Virus record (IMG/VR): IMGVR_UViG_3300025087_000641
Location: 1 to 64,000 of that record
Length of the DNA: 64,000 nucleotides
Origin: a virus
Direction: 5' to 3' (one strand)
The notes under the pieces are model-generated. The model was given only the letters and a program-made list of their open reading frames with translations, ran no database searches and had not been told where the DNA came from. Made by a program: the position numbers and the translations under genes. Below, in pieces: positions 35,302 to 39,851 of this stretch; position 1 is the first letter of the stretch; each line of letters begins with the position of its first letter.

Positions 35302-35549
35302 CATGGCCTACTTCTTGGCATTACCCAATGGTGACGAATACACGATAGCATCGGGATCGTTTTCTGTGCGCTCAAATGCGGAGAAGTATGCAAAGAGAAT
35401 GGGATGGACTAAATATTTCATCGCCACTTCCGAACAAAAGGCAATGATAGAGAGCGGTCAACTGGTCTCATTCGGAACTGTTATTCCCATTGAGAATGTT
35501 ACCGCGCTAGTTGAGCCGGAAAAAGAATCCAAGAACAAACGCAAGCGCC

Positions 35550-36050
35550 ATGTCTCCCGCTGAATTCTTTCTCAACCTCTCCGCCAATATAGCAGGGGAG
35601 ATAGCCTTTGCCATACTTGCAGTTGTGGCGGGACTCGTTGCGTTTCGCTATCGCAAGGCCGCCTCTGTATATCGTGCGCTAGTATCTCAAATGTGGGTAG
35701 GAAGAAAGACAACCTCACCAGACGGTAGAAGTACAGCACACGAGGCCAATGGTGAAATATATATTACCGAGAAGTCTGGTAGAATAACAAATCTGACTCA
35801 TCATCCAGCACTAGATATTCGCCCAATGTTTTCTCCCGATGGACGATGGTTGGCATTCCAAAGCAATAGGGATGGTGGGGATTGGAATGTCTATGTGGTG
35901 GATATTGCATCCCAGAAAACGGTTCAGATTACAAAAATCAAAGGAACAGAGAGAGCAATTGGATGGGACATGACGGGGCAGTTGTATGTAGACCTCGGGG
36001 GCAGCCTGCTTGTCGTCAAGTCTATTGAGTTGGAGAACAAATTGAAATGA
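35550..36050 (+). CDS. membrane-anchored protein with PD40/TolB-like repeats
   Basis: N-terminal TM helix; PMFSPDGRWLAFQSNRDG. Confidence 0.7.
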   Translation: MSPAEFFLNLSANIAGEIAFAILAVVAGLVAFRYRKAASVYRALVSQMWVGRKTTSPDGRSTAHEANGEIYITEKSGRITNLTHHPALDIRPMFSPDGRWLAFQSNRDGGDWNVYVVDIASQKTVQITKIKGTERAIGWDMTGQLYVDLGGSLLVVKSIELENKLK

Positions 36051-36511
36051 GCAATATTGTATATGAATGGATTATGGACAGAGACGGAAATGTTGTGGTT
36101 GGGGAACACATCTTGTCACAAGAGGAAGTAGTCGCCATATTCAGTGGTGGAAGTAGTACTAACACGACCTCAAATGGTGGAATGTTGACATGGACTATTC
36201 CCAACGCAAACAATAGTAATCAGTCAACTCCCACAGTCAAGGTTGCCCTCTATCGGCGTAGCACCCATGATGGGAAGGGGAACTACAAGCAATTCACGCC
36301 TACGCAAGAACAACTCTGGAAAGACCTTGCAGTAGTTGCGACGATGACGAGTGCACTGGCATGGAAATCTGTAGATGAGATTTTCAGAGACGCCACGGAC
36401 TATCGGAACAGAATGATAGGTGGCAAAAAGGAATACATCTCTAGGGACTTTGTTGAACAGTCATTAGAAATACTTTGCAATAATGGATTGATCGAGAAAA
36501 ACGATGCCTAA
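36047..36511 (+). CDS. hypothetical protein
   Basis: ATGA overlap. Confidence 0.55.
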   Translation: MSNIVYEWIMDRDGNVVVGEHILSQEEVVAIFSGGSSTNTTSNGGMLTWTIPNANNSNQSTPTVKVALYRRSTHDGKGNYKQFTPTQEQLWKDLAVVATMTSALAWKSVDEIFRDATDYRNRMIGGKKEYISRDFVEQSLEILCNNGLIEKNDA

Positions 36512-37214
36512 TTGTGTGGCGGTTATTCCCGTTCGGGGAAACAGCAAGGGTATTCCAAGAAAGAATCTAATTGACTTGGGCGGCAAGCCTCTATTCATGT
36601 GGACAGTTGGGGCGGCAATAGAGTCTGGCGTATTTGACAAGATTGTAGTGAGCACAGAAGATGATGAAATCATAAGTTATTGTGACAACGGGAAAGTGGA
36701 TGTAATTTTTCGCCCGCGCTATCTTTCACAAGATCATGTTCAATTGAGTGAGGTTGTGTTACATGCCTATCGGGTTATGGAGCAAGAGTGGGGATGGAAT
36801 CCAACAACGCTATGCTTGTTACAGGCGACCTCGCCACTAAGGACGGCGGGCCATATCATCAATGCCATGCGACAATATAGGGGGCGAGGGACTCTATTCT
36901 CAGCATACATTGACAAACGGTATCACTGGGCGGTGGAGGATAGAGTCGAACCAATACAGCATAATCCTGCTAGACGACTTGGCAGGCAATGGGAGCCAAG
37001 TCAAATTTATACCGAGAACGGGGCGATTTATTTCTTTCCAGCAAAACGATTTAGCCTAGAATGCACAATTAGACTAGAACCATTTGATGTCTATATTATG
37101 GACGAGGAAGATGGATTTGAAATTGATACCCCTTGGCAACTTGATATAGCAAGGCTTAGACTAGAGAAATATGGTCTGCATTTCCCGGAACTTGCGCCAC
37201 AATTAGGCCCTTGA
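36504..37214 (+). CDS. acylneuraminate cytidylyltransferase (NeuA/PseF family)
   Basis: IPVRGNSKGIPRKN, VSTEDDEI, LQATSPLR, ENGAIY, EIDTPWQ. Confidence 0.92.
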   Translation: MPNCVAVIPVRGNSKGIPRKNLIDLGGKPLFMWTVGAAIESGVFDKIVVSTEDDEIISYCDNGKVDVIFRPRYLSQDHVQLSEVVLHAYRVMEQEWGWNPTTLCLLQATSPLRTAGHIINAMRQYRGRGTLFSAYIDKRYHWAVEDRVEPIQHNPARRLGRQWEPSQIYTENGAIYFFPAKRFSLECTIRLEPFDVYIMDEEDGFEIDTPWQLDIARLRLEKYGLHFPELAPQLGP

Positions 37215-37239
37215 CTTTTACATAAAGATATATTATATT
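37211..37239 (+). promoter_or_regulatory. sigma70 promoter for leaderless tnpB
   Basis: TTGACT-N17-TATATT overlapping the upstream stop codon; ATG 7 nt after the -10 box. Confidence 0.75.
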
Positions 37240-37246
37240 GTAAGGC

Positions 37247-38431
37247 ATGATTATCAATAAATCATTTAAGTTCAGAGTTTATCCAACGAGAGAACAGAAA
37301 AAAGAACTCGTCAGGCAATTTGACGCATCACGTTTTGTATATAATTATTTTCTTCGCCAAAGAATTGATTTCTATGTTGCCCACAGGGGGGAGAAAAAAC
37401 AATCCCTGAATTATAATGATACTTCTGCATTGCTTACTCAACTTAAAAAACAGCCTGAATATAATTGGCTTAGGGATACAAATGCCCAATCTCTTCAACA
37501 GTCCTTACGCAATCTTGATATTGCCTATAATAATTTTTTCAATAAACGGACTGAATTTCCGAGATTCAAAAGTAAAAGGGCAAAGCAATCCTTCCATGTC
37601 CCACAATCTTTTTCGGTAAATGTTGAAAATGAACATTTAATTATCCCCAAAATAACACCACTAAAAATTGTTCTGCACCGCCATATTGAGGGGAAAATGA
37701 AGGGCGTTACCATTTCCCGCTCTCCGTCTGGCAATTATTTTGCCTCTATTCTATGTGAAGTTGAAATTAATCCGAGTCCAAAAAGTCTAGGGCACACTAT
37801 TGGATTAGACTTGGGATTGAAACATTTTGCCATTTCATCGGATGGGGCAAAAATAGATTCTCCAAGATATTTTAGGGTATCCGAGCGTAGGCTTTCACGT
37901 TTTCAGCGTAACCTTTCAAGAAAGAAAAACGGAAGTCGGGGACAAGAAAAGGCAAGATTGAAAGTAGCACGTCAGCACGAAAAGATTGTAAATCAACGCA
38001 TTGACTTCCTTCATAAATTAAGTCGTCGCTTAGTAGACGAGAGCCAAGCTATCTATGTTGAGGACTTAAATGTGAAGGGCATGATAAAGAATCGCGCCCT
38101 TGCAAAATCTATCGGCGATTCTGGGTGGGGAGAATTTGTGCGCTGGTTAGAATACAAGGGCAGATGGAATGGTTGTTATATTGGGAAAATTGATAGATTC
38201 TTTCCATCAAGCAAGCGGTGTCACAAATGCGGCTACATCTACCAGGATTTGCGACTCTCGGAACGTGAATGGACTTGCCCAGAATGCGGGAACACAGTAG
38301 ACCGTGATGAGAACGCTGCCCAGAATATTCTTATTTTTGGGGAAGAACGTAGGGCTGGGATGGCCCGAACGCATACGCGAGGGAAGATTCGTCGCCGAAT
38401 CGCTGATCCTCGAAGTCGCATGATTCTATAA
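37247..38431 (+). CDS. tnpB: IS200/IS605-family RNA-guided endonuclease TnpB
   Basis: N-terminal FKFRVYPT; RuvC-I GLDLG, RuvC-II VEDL, Zn finger CHKC/CPEC, RuvC-III DRDENAA all intact; AT-richer than flanks. Confidence 0.95.
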   Translation: MIINKSFKFRVYPTREQKKELVRQFDASRFVYNYFLRQRIDFYVAHRGEKKQSLNYNDTSALLTQLKKQPEYNWLRDTNAQSLQQSLRNLDIAYNNFFNKRTEFPRFKSKRAKQSFHVPQSFSVNVENEHLIIPKITPLKIVLHRHIEGKMKGVTISRSPSGNYFASILCEVEINPSPKSLGHTIGLDLGLKHFAISSDGAKIDSPRYFRVSERRLSRFQRNLSRKKNGSRGQEKARLKVARQHEKIVNQRIDFLHKLSRRLVDESQAIYVEDLNVKGMIKNRALAKSIGDSGWGEFVRWLEYKGRWNGCYIGKIDRFFPSSKRCHKCGYIYQDLRLSEREWTCPECGNTVDRDENAAQNILIFGEERRAGMARTHTRGKIRRRIADPRSRMIL

Positions 38432-38464
38432 TGCGACAATTCACATTATGCCAGAAGAGGATGG
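38330..38464 (+). ncRNA. TnpB omegaRNA (scaffold from right end plus about 16-20 nt guide ATTATGCCAGAAGAGGATGG)
   Basis: Established TnpB biology: omegaRNA spans the tnpB 3' end and right end, and the guide is the flank after TCAC; 5' boundary approximate. Confidence 0.65.
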
Positions 38465-38561
38465 GCGGGAGATAGACGCTCAATGGGAGCTTGATGTGGC
38501 GAGGTTGAGATTTGAGAAGTACGGGTTACATCATCCAGACACAACGCCCATTTTGGAATAA
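38445..38561 (+). pseudogene. displaced 3' end of cytidylyltransferase gene
   Basis: IMPEEDGREIDAQWELDVARLRFEKYGLHHPDTTPILE* is 25/38 identical to the C-terminus encoded at 37095-37214. Confidence 0.9.
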
Positions 38562-38563
38562 CA

Positions 38564-39046
38564 ATGCTAACACTTTCGCCAATAACGCTAAAAGAAACGG
38601 AGAGGATTTGGCAACTCAGAAACGATGTTGCCACGAGGCGCGAGTTTGGGATACCTGTAATCTCATATGCTCAGTGCCTAGATTGGGTGGCGACTGTCAC
38701 CGACAGAAAGACTCCCGAATATGTGTTCCTCGTCAGAGATGCCAAGATGGGGAATATCGGTCTTATCATTCTGGAGAAACACGGCGCAGAAATTGAGATT
38801 CATGTTACAATAGACCCTGCCCATCGAGTACGCAGGGGATATGGCAAACAGGCGATAAAACTAGCAACCGACTGGGCATTTATGAATGGCGCAGACAGGG
38901 TAGTTGCCAACATCCGAGAAGAAAATTACAAAGGACTCTTTGCATTTGAGTCCTCTGGGTACAAAGAAGTCAGAAACTATCTTGGGCCGAGGAATATATC
39001 ATACTTTGAATACGAGATAAGAAATGACCAGAAGAAGAAATACTAA
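38564..39046 (+). CDS. GNAT N-acetyltransferase (PseH-like)
   Basis: IWQLRND, RGYGK, NIREEN...FESSGY; located among pse-like genes. Confidence 0.75.
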   Translation: MLTLSPITLKETERIWQLRNDVATRREFGIPVISYAQCLDWVATVTDRKTPEYVFLVRDAKMGNIGLIILEKHGAEIEIHVTIDPAHRVRRGYGKQAIKLATDWAFMNGADRVVANIREENYKGLFAFESSGYKEVRNYLGPRNISYFEYEIRNDQKKKY

Positions 39047-39851
39047 TATAGACAGACATTGGGATGAAATTACATGGTTATATCTAAATAATTTTGAATC
39101 AACTGTATCATTGGGAGAAAAATTTAGCGTACATGCATCAACTATAGAGAGGCGATTGAAACAGAGTGGTATTCCTGTAAGGCCAGGCGGGAATCTTACT
39201 GAAAATCACACAGCCTTTGATGAAATTAATCCAGATATGTTGTATTGGCTTGGCTATTTGGCTGGAGATGGATGTGTTACACACAATGCAAATGGAATAT
39301 TATCAATCATTTCAATAACAAGCATTGATATTGAACATATTGATAAATTTCTACATTTCCTGTCATCGCATTCCAAAATAACACGGCGCGAAAGCGAAAT
39401 AAATGGCAAGAAATATGTTGTTCATGGGGCAAAAATTACATCTGAAAGAATCGCAAATAGACTTGTTTTTCTTGGGGTAACTCCAAGAAAATCAAGAACC
39501 ATTTCAATATGCCAACAATCCATAGTTTCGACGGTTGATTTTCTGCGTGGTATAATAGATTCTGACGGTTCATTAACTATAACGGCTGATGGATTTACCC
39601 CGACGATAAGCATTTACACCAGTAGCGGGAAATTCTCGGAACAACTCTCTCTTGGTTTCAATGAAATGTTTGGAGAGACATGTGGGATATATTATGACAA
39701 AAGGGGGTCTGGAGCATACCAAGTCGCACTACATGGAAAGAGAATATTGCCCATCTTGCATAGATTATATTCGGGAGACGACATATCATTAAACAGAAAA
39801 AGGGATATTGCATTAGATGTTTTGGAAAGGTTTGGATATGCCCAAATTTGA
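39024..39851 (+). CDS. free-standing LAGLIDADG homing endonuclease with N-terminal HTH
   Basis: YWLGYLAGDGCV and FLRGIIDSDGS motifs, GVTPRKS; AT-rich. Confidence 0.85.
   Translation: MTRRRNTNIDRHWDEITWLYLNNFESTVSLGEKFSVHASTIERRLKQSGIPVRPGGNLTENHTAFDEINPDMLYWLGYLAGDGCVTHNANGILSIISITSIDIEHIDKFLHFLSSHSKITRRESEINGKKYVVHGAKITSERIANRLVFLGVTPRKSRTISICQQSIVSTVDFLRGIIDSDGSLTITADGFTPTISIYTSSGKFSEQLSLGFNEMFGETCGIYYDKRGSGAYQVALHGKRILPILHRLYSGDDISLNRKRDIALDVLERFGYAQI

Follow-up and report, generated by a model that had tools for sequence, protein, structure and literature searches.

A candidate RNA-guided home-and-rescue element in the cytidylyltransferase gene of an uncultured phage

Why should a phage carry two different 3' ends of one of its genes, with the gene for an RNA-guided nuclease between them? 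The question is raised by a locus in an uncultured phage (IMG/VR record IMGVR_UViG_3300025087_000641, 105 kb, estimated completeness 85%). Positions 1-64,000 of this record were analysed, and this stretch of 64,000 nt is here called the window. The gene with two ends codes for a CMP-sugar cytidylyltransferase (CTase) and the nuclease is a TnpB. TnpB is the ancestor of Cas12. In the accepted view its role in nature is to prevent the loss of its own transposon after excision. The reading which we favour, with a probability of about 0.6 as judged from sequence comparisons, is that the tnpB cassette stems from an IS200/IS605 element and is now an RNA-guided home-and-rescue element independent of TnpA.

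The CTase gene and its two ends

The cassette (Table 1) consists of a foreign CTase 3' end, a promoter-like site, an intact ISDra2-like tnpB and an omegaRNA scaffold. Its GC content is 0.34-0.42, compared to 0.45-0.49 in the surroundings. None of the related metagenome loci has it (10/10 are without the cassette), and in these the gene order orf179-orf154-CTase-GNAT-NeuB is kept. The cassette-free alleles join ...GATGTCTAT directly to ATTATGCCAGAAGAGG (L081, L080 and the proteins P0002-P0004), which is the junction that the initial annotation of the locus had predicted. The gene body is about 95% identical at the nucleotide level to the cassette-free allele L081 across the 300 nt preceding the junction, and on the other side the GNAT protein has 86% amino acid identity to that of L081. 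Searches of IMG/VR with the CTase protein, with its alignment and with a pattern back-translated from the foreign end gave no related viral contigs, and nothing similar was found among GenBank phages.

Table 1. Positions of the features of the CTase-tnpB locus in the window.
Feature	Position	Strand	Evidence or remark
CTase open reading frame (CMP-sugar cytidylyltransferase, NeuA/PseF-like)	36504-37214	+	PF02348, E 1.4e-19
CTase gene body, codons 1-197, native to the phage lineage	36504-37094	+	PF02348; ~95% nt identity to L081
TCTAT, TAM-like motif	37090-37094	+	immediately precedes the cassette and the self copy
Whole inserted cassette, 1350 bp	37095-38444	+	missing from related loci; GC drop
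Foreign replacement CTase 3' end, 39 codons + stop	37095-37214	+	continues the reading frame of the native body
Promoter-like site TTGACT-17-TATATT, for tnpB	37211-37239	+	consensus match 10/12
tnpB, 394 aa, ISDra2-like RNA-guided nuclease	37247-38431	+	Pfam; ISDra2 structures; RuvC triad intact
omegaRNA (reRNA) scaffold, overlapping the tnpB 3' end	38311-38444	+	covariance model R1
Scaffold-terminal hairpin GTCGCAT...ATGCGAC	38416-38438	+	followed by TTCAC, 38440-38444
Guide template, 16-20 nt, at the start of the displaced native gene end	38445-38464	+	
Displaced native CTase 3' end, open frame	38445-38561	+	36/38 aa to P0004
GNAT acetyltransferase gene, right homology arm common to cassette-free relatives	38564-39046	+	PF13302

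Both borders of the cassette have the geometry of an IS605 insertion. The left border lies directly 3' of TCTAT, without duplication of the target, and the right border follows TTCAC. The first six nucleotides of the cassette (ATTATG) are also those of the native end, so that the left border can be placed only by taking the right border to be the right-end terminus of the family. A target-site duplication was considered as the source of the two ends and rejected: over their 117 nt the copies have 58% identity, and insertion of IS605 elements generates no such duplication.

When the two ends are aligned (37095-37211 against 38445-38558), 25 of 37 amino acids (E 8e-18) and 68 of 117 nucleotides are identical; the hand count which drew attention to the locus gave the same 25 and 68 identities, over 38 amino acids and 114 nucleotides. 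By its similarities the downstream copy is the native CTase end, as had been suggested. Its nucleotide identity to L081 is 85.5%, 36 of its 38 amino acids are those of P0004, and its frame stops 2 nt before the GNAT start codon; one change is unusual, an R where most alleles have W. The upstream end has 60-65% nucleotide identity to every sampled allele, whereas the sampled alleles are mutually 68-88% identical, apart from one identical pair. It retains all 18 invariant residues of the CTase tail, and the predicted enzyme with native body and foreign end remains full length.

The initial annotation described the two ends as recoded copies. It is correct that the codons differ at 15 of the 25 conserved residues, but the term overstates the case, since cassette-free alleles differ among themselves by synonymous changes at 8-19 of 27-37 conserved codons. 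The 15 differences are thus unexceptional and the upstream copy is better termed a distant foreign allele than a deliberately recoded one. It looks like a distant allele with the base composition of the cassette, its GC3 of 0.30 being like that of tnpB. A region-restricted protein search for the donor gave only the cluster of cassette-type sequences.

Such a duplication of flanks is peculiar to this locus in the material compared: when the upstream flank is compared with the downstream one by tblastx, E is 2e-15 at this locus, and nothing comparable comes up at about 60 other related phage tnpB loci. The foreign end itself occurs in identical form in eight protein variants, joined to gene bodies that belong to two or more clades; a single clade for these gene bodies is rejected by the AU test (p-AU 0.016). 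The strongest case for a second background, P0124, is a partial protein on a 2.2-kb contig, which could be an assembly chimera. An identical end on bodies of different clades is what spread through recombination predicts, and it agrees with the copying by recombination envisaged at the outset. Mosaic gene bodies can also come from ordinary phage recombination without a nuclease.

TnpB, its omegaRNA and the target motif

The TnpB protein has the three domains PF12323 (E 2.8e-15), PF01385 (E 1.4e-27) and PF07282 (E 2.6e-23), corresponding to HTH/WED-REC, RuvC and the Zn-ribbon TNB, and it matches the ISDra2 TnpB structures 8bf8, 8exa and 8h1j with E 5e-90 over residues 1-362. The RuvC acidic residues D188, E272 and D354, which had been noted as intact, align with D191, E278 and D361 of ISDra2. 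A TldR-type RNA-guided repressor, i.e., a domesticated inactive TnpB, is ruled out by this intact active site.

The transposition functions have been lost, as the initial annotation claimed. The Y1 transposase TnpA (PF01797) was not found in the 105-kb record (about 85% complete), with positive controls, and a left-end model built from 12 relatives found no left-end module in the window; its best match in 35500-39500 is at 8.8 bits (E about 1) and has no hairpin. The right end of IS200/IS605 type is retained, the hairpin and the terminal TTCAC being present as described (38416-38444). As read from the sequence, the left end of the element is replaced by the last 39 CTase codons of foreign origin, fused at the stop codon to the tnpB promoter. 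The promoter-like site is the top consensus match within 36400-39100 and its -35 box overlaps the CTase stop codon. A TTTACA(T/A)AAA box of the locus recurs upstream of tnpB in the relatives, and both this likeness and the homology of the 32-bp spacer to their tnpB promoters are weakly supported (nhmmer E 0.095).

The omegaRNA scaffold was located with a covariance model (R1) built from 23 relatives with the window left out. The model has 25 pairs, 16 of them with compensatory changes, and it matches the locus over its full length with 31.7 bits (E 7e-7), a match obtained with filters off over 3 kb; there was none with default filters over 64 kb. The z-score of the scaffold fold is -2.15, and no family in Rfam matches it. 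The right-end terminus TAGTTCAC is conserved across 24 distinct relatives, and their flanks diverge immediately past TTCAC. The predicted guide start at 38445 is in this way fixed independently by the conserved terminus and by the end of the model match exactly at 38444, in agreement with the initial assignment of the guide to the flank 3' of the right end.

The guide starts with ATTATGCCAGAAGAGGATGG, and the expressed copy reads ATTATGGACGAGGAAGATGG at the same place. The five differences which had been counted, those at positions 7-9 among them, are at positions 7, 8, 9, 12 and 15. Compared to the self copy at 37095 the guide has thus 5 mismatches in 16, four of them within the first 12. To the nearest cassette-free alleles, L081 and L080, there are 0 mismatches in the first 16, and to other cassette-free alleles 1-3.

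Which motif would have to stand next to the target? In the viral and prokaryotic genome collections searched there is no TnpB closer than about 55% identity, and the TAM can for this reason not be derived from near-identical copies. In related elements, each of 12 distinct left ends is preceded by TTTAT, and the spacing between this motif and the left-end hairpin is constant; from these ends we infer TTTAT as the target of the family and its putative TAM, the relatives having only 45-50% protein identity to the TnpB of the window. The lineage of the carrier has TCTAT, one change from TTTAT, and cassette-free alleles have TTTAT, TCTAT or TCTAC at this position. The early guess of a TCTAT-like TAM fits the family motif, the target alleles carrying TTTAT or TCTAT. 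At the positions which read the TAM in ISDra2 the window TnpB has the residues of the TTTAT clade: Y52, S56 and Q80 are kept, and K76-F77 of ISDra2 is A-Q in the window TnpB and S-Q in the clade. This suggests a candidate residue code for the choice of TAM, with K76-F77 in ISDra2 and S/A-Q in the TTTAT clade, and such a code is relevant to compact genome editors. A TTGAT five bases upstream of the junction was ruled out as TAM, because the guide would not abut it; it is also disfavoured by the change in the window TnpB of the ISDra2 residues which read the G at -3.

Proposed mechanism and rival explanations

The home-and-rescue model postulates that tnpB is transcribed and that the transcript is processed into an omegaRNA with a guide of 16-20 nt (AUUAUGCCAGAAGAGG...). 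During co-infection with a related cassette-free phage the complex would find TxTAT followed by the matching native end and would cut 15-21 bp into it. The break would be repaired from the cassette-bearing genome and the 1350-bp cassette thereby copied in, with the gene body as left homology arm and the displaced native end plus GNAT as right arm. The right-end junction of the carrier would be spared, as TTCAC stands in place of the TAM. Its expressed end does have the TAM and would presumably be spared by the 5 mismatches in 16, a protection which the model assumes. The 58% nucleotide identity between the two ends would also guard the cassette against deletion by recombination between them.

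The same arrangement could be a relic. An IS605 element inserted 3' of TxTAT would have broken the CTase gene, and a rearrangement would have swapped the left end of the element for the tail of a distant allele and restored the enzyme; tnpB would then be inert baggage or kept by chance, and the cassette would move by general phage recombination. The canonical geometry at both borders is in keeping with this history, the missing left end and TnpA fit decay, and homologous recombination alone suffices for the mosaic bodies. We consider it rather unlikely in view of what has been preserved: the tnpB frame is open over its full length and codes for all catalytic residues, the omegaRNA scaffold and the promoter-like site are intact, the TnpB protein is identical on 34 contigs, and the first 16 nt of the guide template are unchanged compared to the nearest empty alleles. 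Furthermore, the replacement end has diverged just far enough that the guide should miss it, while an identical duplicate would be self-targeted and unstable. It should be noted that insertion followed by repair, proposed by the initial annotation as an alternative history, may be the origin of the cassette, and results in the same present-day arrangement.

It is improbable that the cassette serves mainly as a weapon in competition between phages. According to this explanation TnpB cuts and excludes co-infecting cassette-free phages, the cassette is rarely copied, and the replacement end only keeps the enzyme of the carrier and avoids self-cutting. The evidence from guide, TAM and self-mismatches is identical to that for homing, and phage homing endonucleases do kill competitors whose genomes have diverged too far for recombination (review PMC13565253). 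The nearest cassette-free allele, however, has about 95% identity on the left side of the cut and 85% on the right, amply sufficient for repair from the carrier, and the foreign end on several gene-body backgrounds implies copying or recombination, beyond exclusion alone. Finally, that gene ends of two strains were joined around an unrelated tnpB contig in the assembly of this metagenome-derived record is most improbable, as 28 contigs (JGI, Logan and ENA) encode exactly this CTase protein, with native body and foreign end, seven further variants with the foreign end are known at the protein level (P0001, P0122-P0127), the exact TnpB is on 34 contigs, and both borders are at biologically meaningful positions (putative TAM and right-end terminus); this applies equally to the misassembly which the initial annotation allowed for.

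Relation to known systems and meaning of the finding

TnpB of ISDra2 type from IS200/IS605 elements, with an omegaRNA at the right end, has been described by Karvelis 2021 (PMC8612924), Nakagawa 2023 (PMC10097598) and Meers 2023 (bioRxiv 10.1101/2023.03.14.532601). The phage system is alike in protein family (E 5e-90), domain order and RuvC triad, in a predicted omegaRNA which extends from within the 3' part of the gene to the right end, in the 3' flank as the predicted source of the guide, and in a target adjoining a 5-nt TAM that equals the insertion motif of the transposon (in the phage a putative one). It is different in having neither TnpA nor a left end, in its putative TAM (TTTAT/TCTAT versus TTGAT), in a right end which finishes with TTCAC, where the last scaffold bases of ISDra2 are C, A and A (PMC10097598), and in carrying a piece of a host gene. 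Because TnpA and the left end are missing the cassette cannot transpose, and a "restorative" homing after excision has no role.

A TnpA-independent TnpB gene drive of IS elements has been shown in multicopy plasmids (Mears et al., 2025, PMC11870625), and "transposon non-restorative homing" into phages has been proposed in a review (PMC13565253). In the plasmids insertion-free copies of a homologous replicon are cut and inheritance is biased to the insertion-bearing copy without TnpA, and the phage cassette is proposed to act alike. The plasmid drive uses intact IS elements on laboratory plasmids, whereas here the carrier is a natural phage, the transposition parts are stripped and the interrupted gene is repaired.

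The mORFs of fungal mitochondria carry a foreign gene C-terminus, in atp6 of Allomyces macrogynus and in atp6, atp9, cox2 and nad3 of Glomus (Beaudet 2013, PMC3630166). Their parts stand in exactly the order of the phage locus, with the gene body first, then the inserted foreign C-terminus, the nuclease gene and, downstream, the native C-terminus. Compared to a close relative, the native ends in Glomus have 91-98% and the inserted ends 64-81% identity; the phage has 85.5% and 60% (PMC3630166 for Glomus). The mORFs code for organellar nucleases of LAGLIDADG or GIY-YIG type, which are protein-guided, and the predicted nuclease of the phage is an RNA-guided TnpB, which makes the cassette an analogue of the mORF family and not a member. 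In the phage cassette the guide would come from the displaced native end itself, so that the site of insertion would set the target specificity anew.

Intronless homing by the free-standing T4 endonucleases SegF, SegB and Mob (Belle 2002, cited in PMC13565253) has, as summarised in that review, several traits in common with the cassette. The nuclease gene is free-standing between conserved phage genes, and self-protection comes from sequence differences in the adjacent conserved gene, which is what we propose for the cassette. A nuclease-free related phage is cut in co-infection and flanking markers are co-converted, again a proposed likeness. In the same summary the T4 enzymes recognise their targets as proteins, have no duplicated gene end, and tell self from non-self by a few substitutions, unlike the swapped 117-nt segment of the phage cassette. 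The closest known analogues are the mORF elements of fungal mitochondria and the TnpB gene drive in plasmids.

Synthetic ClvR and HomeR drives direct an RNA-guided nuclease against the wild-type allele of a needed gene and carry a cleavage-resistant rescue copy; they are engineered Cas9 systems in insects. The same logic is proposed for the phage cassette, which is natural and based on TnpB. We found no paper in the literature describing such a home-and-rescue layout of a phage TnpB.

The chances seem to us about even that phages host a natural class of RNA-guided home-and-rescue drives, of which the window would be a clear example. On the same even odds its members would be TnpB-omegaRNA cassettes without TnpA or left end, placed inside a useful gene and carrying a guide-resistant foreign end of it, and they would use the displaced gene end as guide and convert cassette-free relatives during co-infection. 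The locus is directly testable, as the guide, the putative TAM, the predicted sensitive alleles (L081/L080 type) and the predicted resistant allele are all defined in sequence. If the model is true, RNA-guided nucleases have adopted the lifestyle of the classical homing endonucleases on their own, and the cleave-and-rescue design of synthetic gene drives is already present in nature. It would also suggest a reason for the abundance of transposase-less tnpB genes in viral genomes.

The duplicated gene end and the borders of the cassette

The cassette lies within a phage-encoded nonulosonic-acid gene cluster with a PseB-like dehydratase, DUF5131, two small ORFs, a CMP-sugar cytidylyltransferase (CTase), a GNAT acetyltransferase, a LAGLIDADG ORF and NeuB. 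tnpB follows the CTase gene at a spacing of 32 bp, and a second open CTase tail begins, at the same codon, 13 bases 3' of the tnpB stop. The upstream and downstream tails agree at 25/37 amino acids (E 8e-18) and 68/117 nucleotides, with different codons at 15 of the 25 conserved residues. These counts, the codon differences and a tblastx comparison of the flanks agree with the duplicated gene end described in the initial annotation; by tblastx the window locus (E 2e-15) is the sole case of flank duplication among about 60 related phage tnpB loci. At L021/L022 and L023, fetched viral loci, the upstream and downstream flanks of the tnpB elements show weak similarity by tblastx (30-37% over 27-39 aa), which may reflect flanking paralogues or left-end/right-end similarity.

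Features at the cassette locus (window coordinates)
Feature	Position	Strand	Details
CTase ORF	36504-37214		PF02348
Inserted block	37095-38444		1350 bp
Promoter-like site	37211-37239		TTGACT-17-TATATT; best of region; -35 box overlaps CTase stop codon
tnpB	37247-38431		394 aa; PF12323, PF01385, PF07282
TnpB residues 80-81	37484-37489		A-Q for ISDra2 K76-F77
TnpB residues 118-123	37598-37615		T123 of ISDra2 missing
omegaRNA model match	38311-38444		31.7 bits, E 7e-7; full length
Downstream CTase end	38448-38564		open frame; ATG at 38448; stop 2 nt 5' of GNAT start
LAGLIDADG endonuclease ORF	39024-39851	+	PF14528; GC 0.37; between GNAT and NeuB, overlapping both

A protein search gave 29 close CTase relatives. 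In their alignment the downstream copy is identical to the C-terminus of the database protein P0004 at 36/38 positions and to those of P0002 and P0003 at 34/38; the upstream, expressed copy matches exactly only one other database entry (P0001) and agrees at no more than 28/39 with any other allele. None of the 10 fetched related metagenome loci carries tnpB, and the gene order orf179-orf154-CTase-GNAT-NeuB is kept. The closest cassette-free locus, L081, reads ...GAGCCATTTGATGTCTAT|ATTATGCCAGAAGAGGACGG at the junction, exactly as the initial annotation had predicted for such an allele. Identity between the window and L081 is about 95% over the 300 nt 5' of 37095, 60% in the upstream copy and 85.5% in the downstream copy; the drop at 37095 and the recovery in the downstream copy therefore define the inserted block. 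On these alignments the downstream copy is the displaced native CTase end. Its open frame might keep GNAT translationally coupled; in cassette-free relatives the GNAT gene overlaps the CTase stop codon or comes after it.

The upstream copy stands apart, with 60-65% identity to each of the alleles, which share 68-88% among themselves (one identical pair aside). Its third-position GC of 0.30 is similar to that of tnpB (0.36) and unlike that of the gene body (0.43) or the native end (0.51). It had been called recoded; the codon differences are real, but the synonymous differences between the two ends, taken alone, are within the range between natural alleles, and the copy is better read as a foreign allele travelling with tnpB than as the phage's own sequence in recoded form.

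An assembly chimera is very unlikely, since the two proteins recur unchanged across JGI, Logan and ENA, the CTase (native body joined to foreign end) in 28 contigs and TnpB in 34. The 90% cluster of cassette-type CTases holds eight variants with differing bodies and an identical foreign end in 8/8. The body of P0001 is 1-2 residues from cassette-free P0002 versus 7 from the window, and that of P0124 is 6 residues from cassette-free P0012 versus 20. The maximum-likelihood tree of bodies requires three cassette-label changes, a single cassette origin occurs in no bootstrap tree, and a single clade is rejected (AU test, delta lnL 42, p 0.016); several gene backgrounds have therefore acquired the foreign end, and their cassette-free versions still circulate. 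This distribution, known from the CTase proteins, is what homing would predict; ordinary recombination could yield the same.

The CTase-GNAT gap is a variable slot, because a small Cys-rich ORF (MSVIRGHGYGDSH...) is present there in L076, L077, L081 (about 565-1000) and L085 and missing in the window, L079 and L083. The LAGLIDADG ORF is missing in all relatives (in L081 GNAT, 1003-1473, abuts NeuB, 1472-2356) and is a second homing-type insertion, protein-guided, about 460 nt from the TnpB cassette. The cassette-free contig C687J35021_10018389 (L080; 3728-3743) stops 16 nt beyond the insertion point, ...TCTAC ATTATGCCAGAAGAGG, perhaps because cassette-present and cassette-absent variants in the sample broke the assembly.

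Right end, guide and target motif

The comparison drew on 73 viral relatives of tnpB with 45-54% aa identity. In 24 distinct ones CGAAG comes after the gene, then a hairpin rich in compensatory changes and then TAGTTCAC (or TAGTTCAT), and the flanks diverge directly 3' of this terminus. RNAalifold, applied to the final 150 nt in 23 of these relatives, gave 25 pairs, 16 with double-sided changes. The covariance model built from these 23, with the window left out, matches the window when filters are off (a default search over 64 kb missed the match) and ends exactly at TTCAC. The guide template therefore begins at 38445, the start that the initial annotation had assumed.

The left ends of relatives, 12 distinct ones, align as TTTAT, 6-8 nt, G(A/C)GCGTAAAAC, hairpin and ATGTAAGCGAC, with no conservation 5' of TTTAT. 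TTGAT serves ISDra2 both as the motif 3' of which it inserts and as its TAM (PMC2806898, PMC8612924), and by analogy with this rule we infer from the left ends of these distant relatives that TTTAT is the target and TAM of the clade. Two further viral loci, L007 and L008, have left ends about 117 nt 5' of tnpB that are without the TTTAT...GAGCGTAAAAC part and begin with GTGAACTA, the reverse complement of TAGTTCAC; their 5' flanks differ.

According to the ISDra2 TnpB structure paper the TAM is read by Y52 and S56 (-1T), Q80 (-2A), K76 (-3G), F77 and T123 (-4T) and N124 (-5T). The window TnpB keeps Y, S and Q, has A-Q for K76-F77 and lacks T123, and TTTAT-clade relatives have S-Q for K76-F77; these residues are consistent with a TAM in which ...AT is kept and G at -3 is not required any more. 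The S/A-Q in place of K76-F77, together with the lack of T123, in TnpBs of elements that insert after TTTAT may be a simple TAM-specificity code; loci whose motifs are ISDra2-like (NNN/NGN) differ.

The five bases 5' of the guide-matching sequence are TTTAT in L076, L079 and L083, TCTAT in L081, L077, L078, L085 and the window itself, and TCTAC in L080. The TxTAT placement thus puts the cassette at the canonical insertion position of this IS family, and it is plausible, judging from distant relatives, that cassette-free alleles offer a TAM. Mismatches in the first 16 guide bases number 0 in L081 and L080, 1 in L076 and L083, 2 in L079 and L078, and 3 in L077 and L085. The expressed copy at 37095, 3' of TCTAT, has 5 (positions 7, 8, 9, 12 and 15), and the right-end junction is preceded by TTCAC, not a TAM.

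A candidate RNA-guided homing element

No left-end module was found by the left-end model (best 8.8 bits, E about 1, no hairpin); its expected place is occupied by the foreign gene end, running to its stop codon. The 105-kb IMG/VR virus record, of which the window is the first 64 kb, encodes no Y1 transposase (controls positive). The element is incapable of transposition now. The nuclease gene, RNA scaffold and promoter-like site are intact. The nearest solved structure is ISDra2 TnpB (E 5e-90), with whose catalytic D191, E278 and D361 the window residues D188, E272 and D354 align. A weakly supported box, TTTACA(T/A)AAA, is common to the regions upstream of tnpB in the window and relatives.

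At the sequence level the analysis demonstrates the architecture with its borders and guide position, the empty alleles, the multiple backgrounds, and the loss of both TnpA and the left end. The mechanism proposed is that tnpB would be transcribed from the promoter-like site and the transcript processed to omegaRNA. In co-infecting relatives that lack the cassette, the nuclease would cut the native end next to TxTAT, at the ISDra2 distance of 15-21 bp from the TAM (PMC8612924), and repair from the carrier would use as homology arms the gene body, and the displaced end with GNAT. The foreign end would have three roles: the enzyme would stay whole, because all 18 of 18 invariant CTase tail residues are retained; self-cleavage would be avoided; and deletion of the cassette via repeat recombination would be avoided, because foreign and native ends share just 58% identity.

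The shift in identity falls exactly on the TAM border. One idea for the origin of the cassette is a break at the TAM/left-end junction, mended from a distant allele; another is a one-off TnpA event in which the homologous TxTAT of a distant CTase gene stood in for the left site. The sequence observation of the initial annotation is thus confirmed, and its homing interpretation is supported as a candidate mechanism, to which we assign a probability of roughly 0.6.

It is established that IS elements are retained through TnpB (Meers 2023), and drive of IS-bearing plasmids without TnpA has been demonstrated (PMC11870625). 'Transposon non-restorative homing' is named in a 2026 review, which mentions phages as possible targets (PMC13565253). 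We found no published description of this gene-end-replacement layout for TnpB. The exact architectural precedent is the mORFs of fungal mitochondria (Allomyces atp6; Glomus atp6, atp9, cox2 and nad3), in which gene ends are replaced and the inserted ends are 64-81% and the native ends 91-98% identical to relatives (PMC3630166). The cassette is a TnpB-omegaRNA system by membership and no longer a transposon; by analogy it is a candidate for an element with the working mode of mORFs or of intronless homing, with an RNA guide as its own feature.
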